This document shows positions 3,354-64,000 of a DNA stretch of 64,000 bases, piece after piece. Location of the stretch: the NCBI GenBank assembly GCA_049297675.1, contig JBAQUS010000017.1, positions 7,456-71,455 of the forward strand. The letters run 5' to 3'. Source of the stretch: Minisyncoccia bacterium. GTDB taxonomy: Bacteria; Patescibacteriota; Minisyncoccia; Phycocordibacterales; DATDWN01. A program made the translations under genes and the position numbers. Position 1 is the first letter of the stretch, and every line of letters starts with the position of its first letter. The notes beneath the pieces were generated by a model that did no database searches, was not told the DNA's origin, and saw only the letters and a list, made by a program, of their open reading frames with translations.

Positions 3354-3596
3354 CTTCAAGCAATTTTATTTATAGAGCACGCATAAATCTCTGGTGAGAT
3401 TTTGCTCTCGCTCGGCAATCAAGAAAACAATCTTTCTCACTCCAGAGCCTTCTCGCGAACTCGCCAGGATTACCTGTGCTCAAACAACGCTTCAGGCTTC
3501 TTCTCGTTCGTCGTTATTTTCTAATTGCCTCCGCAGTCTCTATAAATAACATTGCTTGAAGTTTTTCCAGGGTATATAATTTATGTTAAGAAATAT

Positions 3597-15263: not shown

Positions 15264-15425
15264 ATTCAGTGATCATACCTGTTTCTAATTTTTACACAAA
15301 TAAGTTGTGTTTATGTGTATTTCGTTAGTATTGACGTGTATTACTAGAGTATTGTAGTATTGTTCTTGGATAACTCATGAAGCTTTTTTGGACATTTCGT
15401 TCACAACTTAATTGAGGAGGTTCTT

Positions 15426-15809
15426 ATGATCCGTAAAACCGTCTTTACAATCTTGTTTTTTGGATGTATAGGCTGTAGCGAGATTGACACAGCTAAGTTT
15501 CGAGTTTCTGGGTTGAACAGGGACAGTCAAAGAAGGATTATCTTTGTGGTCGATGGACAAAACGTTGGCTCGGTTGTTGAACCTGGAGACACGCAATCAC
15601 CGCATGACATAAAGGTAGTATTCGACAAACCACTATGGTATGGTCTTGGACCGTCGTCCATTAAGACCGCTGACATATCACTCGGTGTTCGAGATGCTGA
15701 TACCCAAGTTGTCTTTATGGACGTAATAAGATGTCAGTTGGCGCAAGATTCGGTTACCAACTTTGTGTATAGCAGGGATGGAGGAGTTGATCGTCTCTAT
15801 TGTCGGTAG
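15426..15809 (+). CDS. hypothetical lipoprotein (127 aa), GC-elevated cassette with a GAGGAGG RBS
   Basis: Signal peptide plus lipobox (LFFGCIGC). Canonical SD. GC visibly higher than the flanks. Confidence 0.5.
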   Translation: MIRKTVFTILFFGCIGCSEIDTAKFRVSGLNRDSQRRIIFVVDGQNVGSVVEPGDTQSPHDIKVVFDKPLWYGLGPSSIKTADISLGVRDADTQVVFMDVIRCQLAQDSVTNFVYSRDGGVDRLYCR

Positions 15810-15844
15810 TAACTTGGAGGTCTAGCTATCAAATTTCGCGAGAT

Positions 15845-15880
15845 CGCGAGGCATAGCCTCAAAGCGCCTCGCGTTTTCGT
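15845..15880 (+). terminator. intrinsic terminator CGCGAGGC...GCCTCGCG followed by TTTT
   Basis: 8-bp GC stem followed by a T-run. Confidence 0.55.
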
Positions 15881-21058: not shown

Positions 21059-21772
21059 ATGGCAAAAAGAAGGATAAATTTCTCATTAGATGAGTTCTAT
21101 CACTTGTATAATAGAGGAAACAGTAAGCAGAAAATATTTCTTGATGAACAGGATTATGATAGGTTTACCAAACTTCTTTTTCTCTGTAACACCATAAAAA
21201 GTATTAATTATAGGGATGATATCGTTGAAAAAGAAATTGATGCATGGGATTACGATAAAGGAGAAAGTATTGTTTCGATAGGAGCATGGGTTCTAATACC
21301 CAACCACTTTCATATACTTATAACAACACCCCCCACATCGGAAGTCGGGGAGGGGTCGATAAGTTTTTTTATGAAGAAGGTTTGTATTTCATACTCAAAG
21401 TACTTTAATAAAAAGTATGAAAGAGTAGGAGGTTTATTTGAGTCGAATTTTAAGTCTTCACACATAGATGATGATAATTATCTAAAATATATTTTTTCCT
21501 ACATTCACCTTAATCCAGTAAAAAAAGTTTTTCCCAACTGGAAAAATGATGGCATTTTGGATTATGAATTAACAAAAGAGTTTCTGAACAAATATGAGTA
21601 TAGTAGTTACACGGATTATATAAATATAAAAAGAAATCAAAGTAAAATTTTATCGATTGGAGAATTTCCAGACTACTTTTCTGATACTAAATTATTTAAG
21701 GATGAAATTTTTGATTGGCTATCATATACCCCTACTTCCGATGTAGGGGACAATGATGTAGGGGACAATTAG
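21059..21772 (+). CDS. REP-associated tyrosine transposase (RAYT), copy 2
   Basis: FYHLYNRG, AWVLIPNHFHIL and YIHLNPVK motifs. Divergent from copy 1. Confidence 0.8.
   Translation: MAKRRINFSLDEFYHLYNRGNSKQKIFLDEQDYDRFTKLLFLCNTIKSINYRDDIVEKEIDAWDYDKGESIVSIGAWVLIPNHFHILITTPPTSEVGEGSISFFMKKVCISYSKYFNKKYERVGGLFESNFKSSHIDDDNYLKYIFSYIHLNPVKKVFPNWKNDGILDYELTKEFLNKYEYSSYTDYINIKRNQSKILSIGEFPDYFSDTKLFKDEIFDWLSYTPTSDVGDNDVGDN
21329..21355. repeat. REP family 2-like sequence CCCCCCACATCGGAAGTCGGGGAGGGG, in frame inside RAYT-2 (encodes PPTSEVGEG)
   Basis: Shares the ACATCGGAAGT core with the flanking REPs. Confidence 0.6.
21729..21769. repeat. REP family 2 copy in inverse orientation (CCCCTACTTCCGATGTAGGGG) plus a 15-bp tandem duplication (GATGTAGGGGACAAT x2) forming the RAYT-2 C-terminus
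   Basis: Read directly. Encodes ...TPTSDVGDNDVGDN before the stop. Confidence 0.7.
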
Positions 21773-21880: not shown

Positions 21881-21907
21881 TGAAGGATTTTTGTGGTGAG
21901 CAATTTT

Positions 21908-21956
21908 AAATAAACAAAACCCCGCGCAACATCCGAGTGCGAAGCACGGGGTTTGT
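21908..21956 (-). terminator. intrinsic terminator on the minus strand (CCCCGTGC...GCGCGGGG then TTTTGTTTATTT)
   Basis: GC-rich hairpin plus a U-tract, immediately downstream of the minus-strand 79-aa gene pair. Confidence 0.55.
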
Positions 21957-21978
21957 TGGCGGGGTGGGGAGGAATGGA

Positions 21979-22218
21979 CTAATCCCTATACTGCTTCCTC
22001 CACTGGGTGAGCTCTTCTTCGGTGATGCCGAGTCTCGACATCCCGTTTTTGGGAAACTCACCGAGGTACTCATCGATGTCTTTGAGGGATGCGTACCCCA
22101 ATGACTGGTTGACTTCTCTCTCACGGAGTGTGTCGACCGCTCTTGGTCCAGTCACCATGACATCCGATGGCATTGGTCCGAACATCTGATTCGCCTTGCG
22201 TTGCCAGTAGTTCGACAT
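21979..22218 (-). CDS. hypothetical protein (79 aa), second gene of a GC-rich two-gene operon
   Basis: AAGGAGGAG RBS and ~50% GC, against a ~37% background. No recognisable domain. Confidence 0.5.
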   Translation of the reverse strand: MSNYWQRKANQMFGPMPSDVMVTGPRAVDTLREREVNQSLGYASLKDIDEYLGEFPKNGMSRLGITEEELTQWRKQYRD

Positions 22219-22251
22219 CTCTCCTCCTTTGGCTTTAGCCCTGTTATGTGG

Positions 22252-22491
22252 CTATAACTTGGCAATTCGATTGTAGCTTCGAACACAGCGACGGAGCGCG
22301 GATTCAGTGTACGCTTCATCTAAGCGATTGGGGAGACGAACAATGAACAGCTCTGCACCGTCCTTGTCATTAACCTTTGTTGCATCGAATTCCCGTGCCG
22401 TGTTGACTAGCCTGTCTTCTTCGAGAGGGAAGTCATTTTCTTCGATGATTACGAGGCCTGTTTCGAATTGTCCTGCATAACCTGGGCGCAT
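22252..22491 (-). CDS. hypothetical protein (79 aa), first gene of a GC-rich two-gene operon
   Basis: AAGGAGG RBS 4 nt from the ATG and a consensus promoter upstream. No recognisable domain. Confidence 0.5.
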   Translation of the reverse strand: MRPGYAGQFETGLVIIEENDFPLEEDRLVNTAREFDATKVNDKDGAELFIVRLPNRLDEAYTESALRRCVRSYNRIAKL

Positions 22492-22514
22492 GAAACCTCC
22501 TTTTTCTAACCGAC

Positions 22515-22543
22515 ATTCTATACTGTTTACATTAACTTGTCAA
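22515..22543 (-). promoter_or_regulatory. near-consensus sigma70 promoter TTGACA-N17-TAGAAT driving the 79-aa gene pair
   Basis: -35 at 22543..22538 and -10 at 22520..22515 on the minus strand. The same hexamers are used at 61781-61808. Confidence 0.55.
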
Positions 22544-22639
22544 GGGTAATTTTGTGGCTAGGAATATTGAATAAATGCTTGTTTGTGAGAGTAGAATTTG
22601 CTATAATTATCAGGTTAAAATGACAAAAAAATAATAAAA

Positions 22640-30369: not shown

Positions 30370-30819
30370 ATGAGTTTACCGATGGTCGAAGGAAGAGAGC
30401 TTCAATGGTCGTCACTCACAGATTTTGAAAGGGCGTGTCTCGTCCAAATCGGTGAGGAGGTGGTGAGTCCGAATCCAAACACGCACCTCATCAAGATTCT
30501 CTGTGATGCGGTGCGTCTTGCGAGGCAGTGTGCGGACAATCCACCACTCATTTCCATCGAGGATGATCAAACGAGGCTCAGGAAAATCGCACTTAAGCAG
30601 ATAACCAGCGTAGTCAACAAATATCGACGGAAGGACGGATCTGGTCGTCTCCTTCCAGAGTATGATTGGGGAGGTCAGAGAAACTTCCTCATCCGTGACA
30701 TTTTAGAGACTGCTCTGAATGTTGCATTCTGCATTGAGGGTGCGTCAACCGGATTTCATTCCCGAGATTCCAATCGGGTTTATCATGACAGTCCAGTCAA
30801 CAACGCCCCTCGGGGCTAA
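30370..30819 (+). CDS. hypothetical protein (149 aa), GC-elevated cassette divergent from dnaE
   Basis: GGAGG RBS, a TTGACT-N17-TATTTT promoter, and a GGGGTCAC...GTGACCCC hairpin downstream. No recognised domain. Confidence 0.4.
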   Translation: MSLPMVEGRELQWSSLTDFERACLVQIGEEVVSPNPNTHLIKILCDAVRLARQCADNPPLISIEDDQTRLRKIALKQITSVVNKYRRKDGSGRLLPEYDWGGQRNFLIRDILETALNVAFCIEGASTGFHSRDSNRVYHDSPVNNAPRG

Positions 30820-41099: not shown

Positions 41100-41120
41100 T
41101 GTGGAAGACCGTCTTCCACA
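41100..41120. repeat. REP family 1 palindrome TGTGGAAGAC-C-GTCTTCCACA (opposite orientation to the copies at RAYT-1)
   Basis: Same 10-bp arms as 6755-6775, with central C instead of G. 20 nt after the KH gene stop. Confidence 0.85.
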
Positions 41121-41136
41121 TATTTGTCGTGTTGAC

Positions 41137-41165
41137 TTGACAATGGATTTGTGTGGTGATACAAT
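41137..41165 (+). promoter_or_regulatory. sigma70-like promoter TTGACA-N17-TACAAT inside the rpsP-trmD insert
   Basis: Hexamers and spacing read directly. Confidence 0.4.
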
Positions 41166-41214
41166 GGATAGCGGAACAACCCAAGCTGGTGCTAAGTGCA
41201 CCGAGGAGGATGGA

Positions 41215-41400
41215 ATGAACTGCAAAGGTGAAATCATGACCGGCGGTGAAGTGGCCAGTGTGTTTGCATTCTCGTTTGCCTTGCTGGTGGTCGGAGTACT
41301 CGTCTTCGGGCAGGTGCCGATTGCCCAGGCAATCGAGACAGGCTGGGGCTTCAGTGCCGCCCAGCCCATTCTCAAACTCAAAATTGTGTGGGGAGGGTGA
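41215..41400 (+). CDS. hypothetical small membrane protein (61 aa), GC-rich
   Basis: GAGGAGG RBS and one TM helix. ORF-track frame 41101..41400 trimmed to this ATG. Confidence 0.35.
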   Translation: MNCKGEIMTGGEVASVFAFSFALLVVGVLVFGQVPIAQAIETGWGFSAAQPILKLKIVWGG

Positions 41401-41401
41401 G

Positions 41402-41542
41402 ATGCCAAAAACCTTCTGGCTTTGTCTCTCGTTCATTCTCGTCACGGTTGCTGCCGCAGTGGTCTTTATCTCTTACGAGGTGAAGTACGAGCACAACAAC
41501 CCCGATCGGCCAATCACTCCCATCGCCTTTCGAAGGGCGTGA
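41402..41542 (+). CDS. hypothetical small membrane protein (46 aa), GC-rich
   Basis: GGGGAGGG RBS overlapping the upstream stop, and one TM helix. Confidence 0.3.
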   Translation: MPKTFWLCLSFILVTVAAAVVFISYEVKYEHNNPDRPITPIAFRRA

Positions 41543-41639
41543 GAATTCATGAATGCCGGAGGTGAGGTCTTAGACCACGCCTCCGGTTCGTCGTATATAC
41601 AATTTCATGCATTTGTGATATAAATCAATAGGAGGTAAC

Positions 41640-61562: not shown

Positions 61563-61780
61563 TAGCTCGGGTCTTTTTACTCAATCTCATCGTCTAAAAT
61601 TTAAAAATAATCATCACCTTAGCACTAACTAAGGCTCTTCATATTTTTAAATTTTATACGCGATCTTGAGCAAAAATCCTCCGAGTTTCTTACTTGATAT
61701 CGAGGAGGATACAAAATATCCCATAAAATAAGGTTATTCTAGTTATTAAGATAGAAAAAATTAAGTTCGTCAAAAAATAC

Positions 61781-61808
61781 TTGACAAAAAAAATAACAGT
61801 GCTAGAAT
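61781..61808 (+). promoter_or_regulatory. near-consensus sigma70 promoter TTGACA-N16-TAGAAT
   Basis: Hexamers read directly. AT-rich context just upstream of a GC-rich gene. Confidence 0.55.
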
Positions 61809-61822
61809 ACATATGGAACAGA

Positions 61823-61843
61823 TTGATCGCATTCCGCGATCAA
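61823..61843. promoter_or_regulatory. palindromic operator-like site TTGATCGC-ATTCC-GCGATCAA between the -10 element and the RBS
   Basis: 8-bp perfect arms, positioned at about +15 to +35 of the predicted transcript. Confidence 0.5.
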
Positions 61844-61855
61844 AGGAGGATTCGG

Positions 61856-62506
61856 ATGGCTACCAAAGCGACTGTCAACGAGACCACCGTGCGCCAGGCC
61901 TTTGTGGACTACGCACGTGAGGCGACCCTTGCCGTCGGCAAGGACGGAGTACACCCTCGGTTTGTCGGGTTTTACATCGTTCACGAGGTCACCGATCTCG
62001 TGAATGTAGCGAAGCTCTCATACAAGGAGGGGCGCTTCGATGAGGCATTCGAGAAGATCACCAGTGCGAGGAAGTGGCTTCTCGGTGGTCAGCGCAAGTA
62101 CGTGCTGAGTTCGGTCGAGAAGTACTTCGAGGCTCGTCTCGAGGATCTACGATACTCCGAGCTCGAGCAGGATATCCTCGACGGCGTCAACTCGAAGATG
62201 AGGGAATTCGAGTCAGCTCTCGTTGCCCTCAAGGGTGGCAATGCCAGCCTCGAAGAAGTGACCGTCATGTATTGGGTGCTCAACGATGCAATCGAGAATG
62301 CACCCAAGCTCCAGGCAGAGCGCGACGAGCATCGTCGCAAGCTCGCCGACGAGGATCGTTCCCGCAAGCAACGCGAGAAGATGCTCGCCAAGAAGGCACG
62401 CGAGGCCGAAGAGGCAGAGAAGAGCCGTCAGGCTCAGATCGAAGCCAACGCTCGCTGGCGACAGGAGCGTGAGAGCTTCGTCGACGAGCTCTTCGCGGGG
62501 CTCTAG
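61856..62506 (+). CDS. hypothetical protein (216 aa), strongly GC-rich (~58% by eye), with a charged coiled-coil-like C-terminus
   Basis: AAGGAGG RBS 6 nt before the ATG. Codon usage is dominated by GAG, CTC and CGC, unlike the backbone. No recognised domain. Confidence 0.55.
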   Translation: MATKATVNETTVRQAFVDYAREATLAVGKDGVHPRFVGFYIVHEVTDLVNVAKLSYKEGRFDEAFEKITSARKWLLGGQRKYVLSSVEKYFEARLEDLRYSELEQDILDGVNSKMREFESALVALKGGNASLEEVTVMYWVLNDAIENAPKLQAERDEHRRKLADEDRSRKQREKMLAKKAREAEEAEKSRQAQIEANARWRQERESFVDELFAGL

Positions 62507-62534
62507 TACACAAGGTCGGCAAGGCCGACGAAGT

Positions 62535-62567
62535 CCGGAGAGGACAGCAAACTCTCCGGGCTTTTTT
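62535..62567 (+). terminator. intrinsic terminator CCGGAGAG...CTCTCCGG followed by GCTTTTTT
   Basis: 8-bp stem plus a T6 run. A second hairpin, GTCGGC-AAG-GCCGAC, sits just upstream. Confidence 0.6.
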
Positions 62568-62624
62568 AGTACAAAAATTTTATTTGTGATATTATTACGT
62601 TAGAAATCTTAGAGAGGAGTAAGG

Positions 62625-62756
62625 ATGTCACAGAGGACAAACACTACTATACCTTTCTCGTTAGGGTTCTTCGCCGTTTCATCCGTCTTTGTTGCGGGGG
62701 CAACATTAGTAGCACGTGGGCTAGTGATTGTTCTCAGTCAGTACTTCAACTTCTAG
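62625..62756 (+). CDS. hypothetical micro-membrane protein (43 aa)
   Basis: GAGGAG RBS and one TM helix. GC-elevated. Confidence 0.3.
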   Translation: MSQRTNTTIPFSLGFFAVSSVFVAGATLVARGLVIVLSQYFNF

Positions 62757-62766
62757 CGAGGTAAAG

Positions 62767-62925
62767 ATGGAAAAAAAGAAAGAAGTAATATGTAGTCCGG
62801 TTTGCGATAGTCGCAACATCGGTCCGTACTACTCAACAGGCTACAACATCTGCCGGAAATGCGGGAAACTTCTTGATGAGATCTTGCTCCCCCCAGAAGG
62901 GTCAGAAAGGTTGGTAAAAAAGTAA
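62767..62925 (+). CDS. hypothetical zinc-ribbon micro-protein (52 aa)
   Basis: CSPVC...CRKC Cys pairs, a GAGG RBS, and a terminator downstream. Confidence 0.35.
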   Translation: MEKKKEVICSPVCDSRNIGPYYSTGYNICRKCGKLLDEILLPPEGSERLVKK

Positions 62926-62930
62926 CAAGT

Positions 62931-62982
62931 GCTTGCGGGGGAGGGTAAAGTCAGTTTTCTTTACCCCACGCAAGGCTTTTTT
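62931..62982 (+). terminator. intrinsic terminator CTTGCGGGG.AGGGTAAAG...CTTTACCCCACGCAAG followed by TTTTTT
   Basis: Long imperfect hairpin plus a T6 run. Confidence 0.55.
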
Positions 62983-62987
62983 GTTAC

Positions 62988-63010
62988 ATGCCAAGGGGCA
63001 CCCTTGGCAT
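62988..63010. repeat. REP family 3 palindrome ATGCCAAGGG-GCA-CCCTTGGCAT
   Basis: 10-bp perfect arms with loop GCA. Confidence 0.85.
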
Positions 63011-63050: not shown

Positions 63051-63072
63051 ATGCCAAGGGTGCCCCTTGGCA
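63051..63072. repeat. REP family 3 palindrome ATGCCAAGGG-TGC-CCCTTGGCA (inverse orientation)
   Basis: Same arms with loop TGC. Confidence 0.85.
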
Positions 63073-63174: not shown

Positions 63175-63795
63175 TTACATTGGATCATTAGATAAGTTTA
63201 TTGTTTCGTCTAAGAAATCGTTACCGTCAAACAGTTCTTCAATAATTTGTCTATAAACAAGTATGAAATTCCTATCAGAAGTGTAGTCGATATAACTACT
63301 CCATTTATAATCATTAATATTACTTACAAGTCCATCTTTCAAGGGATTTGTGTGAATGTAGGCAGAAGTCCACATCAATTGTTCGTTTGAATTTATAACT
63401 TTAGACTTGAACTGATCTTGAAATAGATGACCAACTCTTTTATATTTTCTATTAATGTACATTGCATAACTTGTACAAAGTTTTAATATTAAATTTGAAA
63501 TGGGAATATTTTTCGATTGCTCGATCAATAAATGAAAATGATTTGGCATTAGACAAAAAGAGTGTAATTTAAATGCATTTTTTCCTAGCCCTTCTATCCT
63601 AATTCTGGAGTGAGGGAGATTGGTCAGTACATTTTTGTTTAATTCGGCTTCCTCAAACCCCAAAATTAGGCCTAGTCTAAATAAAAATGCCCTGTAATCC
63701 TGCTGGTCAAAGAATATTTTTTCTTTATTGTTACCCCTATTGTAGGCATGGAAGATTGAACCATCACCAACATCTTTGTAATCTCTTAGTTTCAT
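63175..63795 (-). CDS. REP-associated tyrosine transposase (RAYT), copy 3
   Basis: FHAYNRG, FCLMPNHFHLL and YIHTNPLK motifs. Confidence 0.8.
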   Translation of the reverse strand: MKLRDYKDVGDGSIFHAYNRGNNKEKIFFDQQDYRAFLFRLGLILGFEEAELNKNVLTNLPHSRIRIEGLGKNAFKLHSFCLMPNHFHLLIEQSKNIPISNLILKLCTSYAMYINRKYKRVGHLFQDQFKSKVINSNEQLMWTSAYIHTNPLKDGLVSNINDYKWSSYIDYTSDRNFILVYRQIIEELFDGNDFLDETINLSNDPM

Positions 63796-63826: not shown

Positions 63827-63848
63827 TGTCAAGGGTGCCCCTTGGCAA
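63827..63848. repeat. REP family 3 palindrome TGTCAAGGG-TGC-CCCTTGGCAA (one G-T mismatch in the stem)
   Basis: ~30 nt upstream of the RAYT-3 start. Confidence 0.75.
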
Positions 63849-63902: not shown

Positions 63903-64000
63903 ATGGGAATGTCAAAGGTTGCATTTCAAAGGGTACTTGAGAAAATATACAAATCACTAAACAAGGAGCAGAAAAGGGCTGTCGATACTATAGAAGGTCC
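63903..64000 (+). CDS. UvrD/PcrA/Rep-family helicase, N-terminal fragment (continues beyond window)
   Basis: Translation M(G)MSKVAFQRVLEKIYKSLNKEQKRAVDTIEGP carries the LNxEQxxAV...GP N-terminal helicase signature. The ORF is too short to appear in the six-frame track. Confidence 0.5.
   Translation, partial: MGMSKVAFQRVLEKIYKSLNKEQKRAVDTIEG

Follow-up and report, generated by a model that had tools for sequence, protein, structure and literature searches.

A Conserved GC-Rich Gene with a Highly Structured Transcript in Low-GC Patescibacteria

Gene and Signals at the Locus

The DNA analyzed here, henceforth the window, is a stretch of 64,000 nt (64 kb) from a Minisyncoccia bacterium (GenBank assembly GCA_049297675.1, contig JBAQUS010000017.1, positions 7,456–71,455) that has a GC content of 37.9% and carries, in this order, rpoB, rpoC, dnaG, rpoD, an AT-rich spacer, and then a unit built around a 216-aa open reading frame (ORF) at 61856–62506, which we refer to as X. 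An earlier note, made from the letters of this DNA alone, had pointed to the promoter, palindrome, ribosome binding site, ORF, terminators, and micro-ORFs of this region and to the adjoining REP (repetitive extragenic palindromic) sequences with their RAYT (REP-associated tyrosine transposase) gene, and all these elements are present where it placed them. Other contigs read for comparison are designated by L-numbers and, in one case, P0005. The X unit and its conserved 3' neighbor consist of the following features:

61781–61808, forward strand: sigma-70-type promoter with an extended −10 element (TTGACA at 61781–61786, 16-nt spacer, TAGAAT at 61803–61808, TG at 61800–61801)
61823–61843, forward strand: leader stem-loop with an 8-bp stem and the loop ATTCC, immediately 5' of the Shine–Dalgarno (SD) sequence
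61844–61849, forward strand: SD sequence AGGAGG, 6 nt ahead of the ATG at 61856
61856–62506, forward strand: coding sequence (CDS) of X, 216 aa, uncharacterized all-helical Patescibacteria family; 58.5% GC, A-poor synonymous sites, over-structured mRNA
62515–62529, forward strand: hairpin GTCGGC-AAG-GCCGAC after the stop codon, from folding
62530–62567, forward strand: intrinsic terminator with a 13-bp stem, a 9-nt loop, and a U-tract (UUUUUU)
63903–64000, forward strand: start of a UvrD/PDDEXK helicase–nuclease gene, the conserved 3' neighbor

The promoter matches the consensus at 11 of 12 positions and is the top-scoring promoter-like site of the region, in which such sites are not enriched overall (5 observed vs. 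4.4 expected). Equivalent promoters also precede the orthologues in L003, L016, L014, L013, L009, and L019, and orthologues have GGGAGG, GGGGAG, or AGGAGG at the same SD site. The terminator escaped a simple terminator scan because its loop is 9 nt long, and the arrangement of two hairpins 3' of X recurs in L003, L004, L013, L005, and L009. Judged by these signals, the X unit is probably strongly expressed.

The identical X protein is encoded on contigs of independent assemblies, three of them 50–200 kb long, and at least two sequencing runs underlie these contigs; L001 agrees with the window throughout 2,421 nt with no mismatches, and L002 is 99.4% identical. Because independent assemblies carry identical sequence and relatives keep the gene order, a chimeric assembly at this locus, which the earlier note had wished to see ruled out, is unlikely. 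L002 (positions 8–47) differs from the window (61610–61649) at only eight positions, which cluster around a hairpin in the spacer (61616–61635) and are partly complementary swaps (G to C at 61622 and C to G at 61629); this cluster of variants resembles the inversion of a hairpin segment or a contig-end artifact caused by fold-back.

X Belongs to an Undescribed Family of Helical Proteins

The exact X protein is annotated by NCBI as a hypothetical protein, and a word-indexed search returned X itself and one protein with 40% identity. A profile search of 1.84 billion representative sequences found 56 full-length representative clusters with lengths of 185–241 aa that align end to end, with E values down to 1e-64 when the two query sequences are excluded. 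In an alignment of 40 sequences the residues G28, F36, F39, A71, D106, W140, and R156 are near-invariant, and the family is marked by a GxxGxRPRFxGF loop and a YWxLxDAIExAPxEQ motif. AlphaFold2 run with this alignment gave a confident model (predicted local distance difference test [pLDDT] 96.9, predicted template modeling score [pTM] 0.80) of five helices, the last of which comprises residues 132–215, so that X is a real protein. E, R, K, and A abound in its last 60 residues, in keeping with the earlier note, which had called the C-terminus charged and helical. These residues close with a short hydrophobic tail found throughout the family, and the last 8–10 residues of family proteins form a recurring acidic–hydrophobic motif (QLASIF, QLEALFA, EFASMF, and DELFAGL in the window protein). 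X has neither a signal peptide nor a membrane segment. The tail could be partner-binding, and the conserved loop and tail together argue for a specific partner and not for a filler protein.

Homology assigns no function to X, which the earlier note had rightly called unrecognized: among the curated collections Pfam, NCBIfam, PHROGs, PADLOC, and PDB sequences X scored above no threshold, the best match being DUF6115 (E value 0.11), and a few family members matched TPR-like or SRP72 models at E values of about 0.002–0.008, below the family thresholds. Known all-alpha proteins with a long charged C-terminal helix gave no significant match in sequence or fold, and the loop and the YWxLxDAIExAPxEQ motif are peculiar to this family. 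Two functional candidates were rejected. Binding of sigma-70 by an anti-sigma factor of the Rsd/AlgQ type, considered as X follows rpoD, gave a Foldseek E value of 3.0 to 2p7v_A with template modeling scores of 0.26/0.36, and a beta-clamp-binding motif at the C-terminus is incompatible with the hydrophobic spacing of QLxLF. No relatives of X were found in phages or plasmids by tblastn, in a pattern scan of 185,579 species-representative genomes (GTDB), or, as confirmed matches, in scans of viral and metagenome contigs; a DNA-pattern scan of metagenome contigs for the conserved leader also found no match. The earlier note had suggested phage proteins as one place to look for relatives. The literature that we searched describes neither the X family nor any conserved genes that are GC-rich and structured in genomes of Patescibacteria, that is, the Candidate Phyla Radiation (CPR).

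The GC Excess Is Maintained across the Family

X is the highest GC peak anywhere in the window. Its GC content at the three codon positions is 0.66/0.36/0.73, and the last of these values (GC3) compares with 0.34 in rpoD. The GAG/CTC/CGC-type codon usage reported in the earlier note was confirmed, with CTC making up 15 of 19 Leu codons, AAG 16 of 17 Lys codons, GAG 23 of 28 Glu codons, and CGN 18 of 20 Arg codons. When the X protein is recoded with the codon usage of its own genome, a GC content of 41.9% results vs. the actual 58.5%.

We read the DNA of 11 distinct family members whose proteins are 18–48% identical to that of the window. In all 11 the gene has 55.9–64.8% GC and a GC3 of 0.64–0.86, vs. 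flanks with 33–43% GC and neighboring genes with a GC3 that is mostly about 0.19–0.42 and mainly below 0.3; GC is likewise raised in a few other small genes. At residues shared between members, the third bases of 4-fold degenerate codons agree at about the level of chance (e.g., 12 observed vs. 12.7 expected), and the closest pairs have a modest excess of agreement (19–20 vs. 13–15 expected). Synonymous sites between members are at or near saturation and have been largely or wholly turned over. Because these sites are near-random and yet GC3 is about 0.7 everywhere, the GC excess of X is a maintained state and not that of an import that has yet to ameliorate, as the earlier note had supposed.

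The synonymous choice has a signature of its own. Across the family, 4-fold sites are C in 34–50% and A in 4–17% of cases (background A 34%), the main Leu codon is CTC in 9 of 11 members, Arg is encoded by CGN instead of AGR in all 11, and NNG is far more frequent than NNA in most. The signature is strand-asymmetric: at 4-fold sites C is more frequent than G in 10 of 11 members (the two are equal in L015), and CTC far exceeds CTG in most. Typical high-GC bacteria, unlike this family, prefer CTG and GCG. The GC step runs from the leader hairpin to the terminator, and the promoter shares the AT-richness of the host genome. An antisense or overlapping gene within X was considered and rejected, as the antisense frames are open only to the extent expected for GC-rich DNA; adenine depletion of the kind related to diversity-generating retroelements (DGRs) was likewise rejected, A exceeding T on the coding strand overall.

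The Transcripts Are Structured beyond Their Composition

The predicted folding energy of the family's coding sequences is −0.39 to −0.49 kcal/mol per nt, vs. −0.19 to −0.25 kcal/mol per nt for control genes. In round figures the mRNA has about −0.43 kcal/mol per nt and neighboring mRNAs about −0.2, which places most members 2–6 standard deviations under their synonymous-codon shuffles. Compared with synonymous-codon shuffles, which preserve the protein and the codon usage, ten members have z scores of −3.7, −3.0, −3.3, −1.7, −6.2, −1.9, −2.4, +0.2, −1.8, and −4.3, and eight ordinary genes range from +1.8 to −1.4 in the same test. For the whole transcript inferred in the window (61815–62566), z is −6.4 vs. 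dinucleotide-preserving shuffles. The signal is mostly one of being structured and not one of a single shared fold, and a search of Rfam in gathering and E-value modes gave only sub-threshold, miRNA-like matches on the REP and spacer hairpins.

Relatives Carry X in the Same Place

The order rpoB-rpoC-dnaG-rpoD-X-UvrD recurs in relatives in which X is only 31–48% identical to the window protein. In L016, a metagenome-assembled genome labeled "Parcubacteria group bacterium" at NCBI, the order is rpoB-rpoC-dnaG-rpoD, a gene for a 132-aa protein, X (31% identity), UvrD/PDDEXK, and thioredoxin, as in the window. L017 and the P0005 contig also have rpoD upstream of X and UvrD/PDDEXK downstream of it; on the latter X is followed by UvrD, thioredoxin, and BacA, in agreement with the genes that lie downstream of the window, and in L003 and L004 UvrD directly follows X. 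In a second clade X is convergent with tsaD, and elsewhere X is located between the genes for RNase Y and ClpP. All 11 DNA contexts of the family are low-GC Patescibacteria. Between the window and L016 rpoD is 81% and X 31% identical, and between L003 and L004 UvrD is 83% and X 48% identical, vs. 65–76% for X and 71–75% for TsaD in the tsaD-adjacent clade. The small-gene content at the locus is variable: the window has small ORFs 3' of X and relatives have them 5' of it, namely the 132-aa membrane protein of L016 (9329–9727, 48% GC) and an 84-aa ORF of P0005 (1441–1695).

Set against the usual marks of a recent transfer, X has an atypical composition and codon use (58.5 vs. 37.9% GC; GC3 0.73 vs. 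about 0.3), but neither absence or relocation in relatives, nor amelioration decay, nor an identifiable donor or mobile-element relatives were found. The earlier note itself had named the same gene in the same context in relatives, with a recognizable housekeeping function, as what would speak against a recent import; gene and context do recur, and a housekeeping function is not recognizable.

The Leader Palindrome Behaves as an RNA Hairpin

The leader contains the perfect palindrome TTGATCGC-ATTCC-GCGATCAA (61823–61843), which the earlier note took for the operator of a dimeric DNA-binding protein. Counted from the inferred transcription start, it occupies positions of about +8 to +28, and the −10 box lies 15 nt upstream. 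The whole leader folds at −11.4 kcal/mol with the hairpin formed and the SD sequence left free. In orthologous leaders the loop is conserved as ATTCC or ATTTC (ATTYC), and the arms of the stem vary as follows:

Window: GATCGC/GCGATC
L003: CCAC/GTGG
L004: GCCAC/GTGGC
L016: CCGC/GCGG
L014: related CGCG stem

An additional outer helix, AGCAAT/ATTGCT, is present in L003, L004, and L016. In the alignment of five leaders, 79% of cells are paired vs. 34–51% in slid-register controls, both sides have changed in four of eight pairs, and the covariation score was reached by none of 500 shuffles. The hairpin adjoins the SD sequence in all orthologues, and its distance to the 5' end depends on the start inferred from the −10 box. 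More distant members have a small GC-rich hairpin of unrelated sequence ahead of the SD sequence.

Because the loop is conserved, the arms covary, and the site is located downstream of the −10 box, the palindrome appears to act as an RNA hairpin in the 5' untranslated region and not as a DNA operator. If a dimer bound the site as duplex DNA, it is the arms that should be conserved, so the operator reading is not supported; there are no conserved half-sites, no adjacent helix-turn-helix gene, and no second exact copy in the window, where the one match with three mismatches (at 3402) is at chance level. Conservation of the loop sequence suggests a binding partner. Elsewhere in the window (15390–15870), a lipoprotein-like 127-aa orphan ORF (15426–15809) has the hairpin TGGAC-ATTTC-GTTCA 12 nt ahead of its SD sequence, and the shared ATTTC loop may be due to chance.

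A Lineage-Specific Stretch between X and UvrD

In L003, L004, and L016 both the promoter motif of UvrD, (T)GCTATYCTAT, and its start lie within about 100 nt downstream of the X terminator. The corresponding distance in the window is about 1.3 kb, and the intervening micro-ORFs, terminator, REP sequences, and RAYT gene are absent from those three relatives. This stretch contains the following features:

62587–62595, forward strand: possible extended −10 element TGa-TATTAT for the micro-ORF unit, by inference; it aligns with the UvrD promoter motif of relatives
62625–62756, forward strand: 43-aa hydrophobic ORF with the SD sequence GAGGAG, unverified; called as a gene in Logan assemblies
62767–62925, forward strand: 52-aa ORF with a zinc-ribbon-like Cys-x3-Cys...Cys-x2-Cys pattern and the SD sequence GAGGT, unverified
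about 62931–62985, forward strand: second hairpin terminator, with the 3' flank AAGGCTTTTTTGTTACAT
62991–63007, 63054–63070, and 63829–63845, no strand assigned: REP palindromes, three copies vs. 0.07 expected by chance
63175–63795, reverse strand: Y1 (HUH) transposase gene of 206 aa (Pfam Y1_Tnp, E value 2e-11; NHFHLL and YIHTNP motifs), flanked by REP palindromes

The 43-aa ORF matches nothing in Pfam, PADLOC, or NCBIfam. The 52-aa ORF has a weak match to Zn_Ribbon_TF (E value 0.0013) that falls under the Pfam cut-off; it has no homologue among 5.8 billion proteins, and no gene is called there in the Logan contig L001. Neither micro-ORF has a homologue in any fetched locus. The terminator flank AAGGCTTTTTTGTTACAT reappears upstream of the family gene in L003, and the same promoter-like motif occurs in the window both after the X terminator and before UvrD. 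It is plausible that the micro-ORFs and the REP/RAYT cluster are a later, lineage-specific insertion between the X terminator and the UvrD promoter; REP and RAYT are absent from the orthologous loci and so arrived after X. The view of the whole block as recently acquired is plausible for this 1.3-kb stretch and is not supported for X, whose orthologues lie in the same place with the same GC content.

Interpretation and Alternative Explanations

The GC-richness and the hyper-structured mRNA of the X family are unexpected. The reading that we favor, with a little more than even confidence, is that X is an old, resident, autonomous unit whose mRNA stays GC-rich, A-poor, and structured because selection acts on the transcript, with RNase resistance and a long half-life as the simplest benefit. 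X would have been inherited vertically and be confined to the Parcubacteria/Minisyncoccia lineage, and its product would be a cytoplasmic all-alpha protein with a conserved N-terminal helical bundle, a charged helix of about 80 residues, and a short hydrophobic tail. The gene would form a monocistronic unit made up of a near-consensus extended −10 promoter, an RNA stem-loop at the SD sequence, a strong SD sequence, a GC-rich CDS, and a double-hairpin terminator. Selection at the level of the transcript would hold the GC-rich, A-poor codon choice, by which X mRNA would be about twice as structured per nucleotide as that of its neighbors. The likeliest benefit would be protection from RNases with a preference for single-stranded AU-rich RNA, giving lasting high output in a ribosome-poor cell, and the leader hairpin would probably serve as a 5' stabilizer, as a translational operator at the SD sequence, or as both.

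Several points weigh against this reading. GC-richness is not shared by the ribosomal protein, RNA polymerase, and HU genes of these genomes, so high expression alone does not call for it. L015 has no excess structure, alifold gives a small consensus energy (−46 and −17 kcal/mol) that lies just 2.7–3.4 standard deviations beyond codon-column shuffles, and the structure is mostly without positional conservation; codon-junction dinucleotides or an uneven GC3 within the gene can also bias the synonymous-shuffle test. The check at the DNA level covers 11 of the 56 family representatives, and the evidence for covariation comes from five leaders. Promoter strength and mRNA stability are deduced from sequence, as are the transcription start, the expression level, mRNA stability as the selected trait, and the role of the protein.

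In the UvrD clade the CDS diverges far faster than its flanks (48 vs. 83% identity between L003 and L004), as would be expected if X were a moron-like cassette for which a GC-rich reservoir (a phage, a plasmid, or a host, for example) repeatedly supplied replacement alleles by horizontal transfer or homologous recombination. The leader and the terminator/UvrD flanks would then be the recombination arms, and the GC content would mirror the donor pool. The leader is indeed much better conserved than the CDS, the stretch shared by L003, L004, and L016 differing at few positions and the leaders of L009 and L019 being 93% identical over 100 nt, and the combination of an autonomous promoter–gene–terminator unit with a deviating composition, the change of locus between clades (the UvrD side, the TsaD side, and the RNase Y–ClpP interval), and the presence of other GC-elevated orphan cassettes in the same genomes fit such a history. 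We nevertheless consider it unlikely, given that no member turned up in the phage, plasmid, and viral-contig collections or in the pattern scan of species-representative genomes, that every DNA context found is a low-GC Patescibacterium, that X in the TsaD clade has diverged to the same degree as its neighbors, that the strand-asymmetric codon signature is unlike that of typical high-GC bacteria, and that the GC content of a donor leaves the excess of folding beyond composition unexplained. The earlier note had proposed that the whole block is recent foreign cargo, from a phage or an actinobacterium, at a REP/RAYT hotspot, with a dimeric repressor acting on the duplex palindrome. The 20-point GC difference between X and its genome, the adjacent RAYT/REP cluster, the perfection of the palindrome, and the lack of micro-ORFs and RAYT in relatives would fit this proposal, which we regard as highly improbable: relatives down to 31% identity share the gene, its position, and its GC excess, synonymous sites are at or near saturation, the orthologous loci are free of RAYT/REP, the palindrome exists as a single copy in the window whose arms vary and whose loop is kept, and phage or plasmid homologues are missing.

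The folding data could also be taken to mean that the structured transcript acts as a scaffold, decoy, or regulatory RNA besides or instead of coding for protein. The z score of the transcript, the excess structure in nine of ten members, the coincidence of the GC step with the transcript boundaries, and the conserved loop motif of the leader are in keeping with a role of this kind. We give it little credence, for the protein signal is strong (profile E values to 1e-64; G28, F36, F39, W140, and R156 conserved; pLDDT 97), third positions are free to vary, Rfam has no match, and a conserved consensus structure is weakly indicated.

Other GC-Elevated Small Genes

It is possible, and we propose it tentatively as less probable than the reading for X itself, that Patescibacteria carry a class of small lineage-specific genes with GC-rich, A-poor, and hyper-structured transcripts selected against the AT bias, which would be RNase-resistant long-lived mRNAs or have a second non-coding role and would each have a consensus promoter of their own and a conserved 5' hairpin; the X family would be the clearest example. 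Searches of Pfam, PHROGs, PADLOC, and NCBIfam with X, the micro-ORFs, and other GC-rich ORFs yielded no significant match.

Two orphan genes elsewhere in the window (30370–30819 and 47439–47951, encoding 149 aa and 170 aa) have 48–50% GC and each its own 3' hairpin, and in both the predicted folding of the mRNA is stronger than that of synonymous shuffles (z −2.75 and −4.47, respectively). They hint at a class of orphan genes in this genome that are GC-elevated and over-structured.

Further cassettes of elevated GC content were seen. On the reverse strand at 21905–22545 an autonomous cassette with a TTGACA-N17-TAGAAT-like promoter and a hairpin terminator at about 21920–21955 contains two 79-aa orphan ORFs (22252–22491, 49% GC, and 21979–22218, 53% GC) without a match in Pfam, NCBIfam, or PADLOC, and it adjoins a second Y1/RAYT-like gene at 21059–21772 (Pfam Y1_Tnp, E value 2e-5). 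A cassette of 52–56% GC at 41100–41600 has a promoter-like site, the hairpin GGTGC-TAAGT-GCACC just before the SD sequence, two small membrane-like ORFs (41215–41400 and 41402–41542), and a hairpin with a weak T-tail. In L018 (15970–18911), from a genome of 36% GC, a DGR with reverse transcriptase and bAvd genes lies beside a 58-aa gene of 52% GC and a 285-aa gene with 59% GC, a GC3 of 0.69, and a folding z score of −2.5; the latter belongs to the compositional class of X and is possibly the DGR target.

Relation to Known Systems and Significance

In its expression architecture X resembles known units, and its conserved compositional anomaly is the new element. The phage "morons" described by Hendrix and colleagues are autonomous promoter–gene–terminator units of deviating base composition, and X likewise lies as a single gene between unrelated neighbors, has a sigma-70 promoter and an intrinsic terminator of its own, and contrasts sharply in GC content with the DNA around it; unlike morons it is chromosomal and not located in a prophage, it is syntenic over deep divergence, its anomaly is conserved in orthologues, and no phage relatives of it were found. 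Highly expressed genes with stabilizing stem-loops in the 5' untranslated region include ompA, S-layer genes, and those with the Bacillus subtilis aprE and ermC leaders. With these X shares a strong promoter, a 5'-proximal hairpin near the inferred start, a strong SD sequence, a monocistronic layout, and a strong terminator, but in X the coding region itself is GC-rich and over-structured, the loop sequence of the hairpin is conserved, and the hairpin is a putative stabilizer. A third parallel is offered by structural RNA genes, in that rRNA and tRNA genes are enriched in GC in AT-rich or thermophilic genomes. As in these, the local GC content of X is uncoupled from the genomic mutational bias, apparently through selection on RNA structure, the difference being that X is a protein-coding mRNA in which the enrichment lies mainly at synonymous third positions. 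The GC content of structural RNA genes is reported to correlate with growth temperature (PMC8827189).

Atypical GC content and codon usage are routinely taken as a sign of horizontal transfer. X is a clean counterexample, in which a 20-point GC excess is inherited and maintained across genomes whose orthologues are 18–48% identical, and it is a warning for the use of island callers on CPR genomes. If small genes of this kind do form a class, RNA-level selection would shape gene-specific base composition over deep evolutionary time. Our analysis also brings to light a protein family of the Parcubacteria/Minisyncoccia that is undescribed and probably abundant. If the structure or stability of its transcript is what is selected, X would make mRNA-level selection tractable in bacteria that are ultra-small, poor in ribosomes, and uncultivated, since the undescribed family comes with a fold model of high confidence, a 5' hairpin that is conserved, and natural sequence variants.

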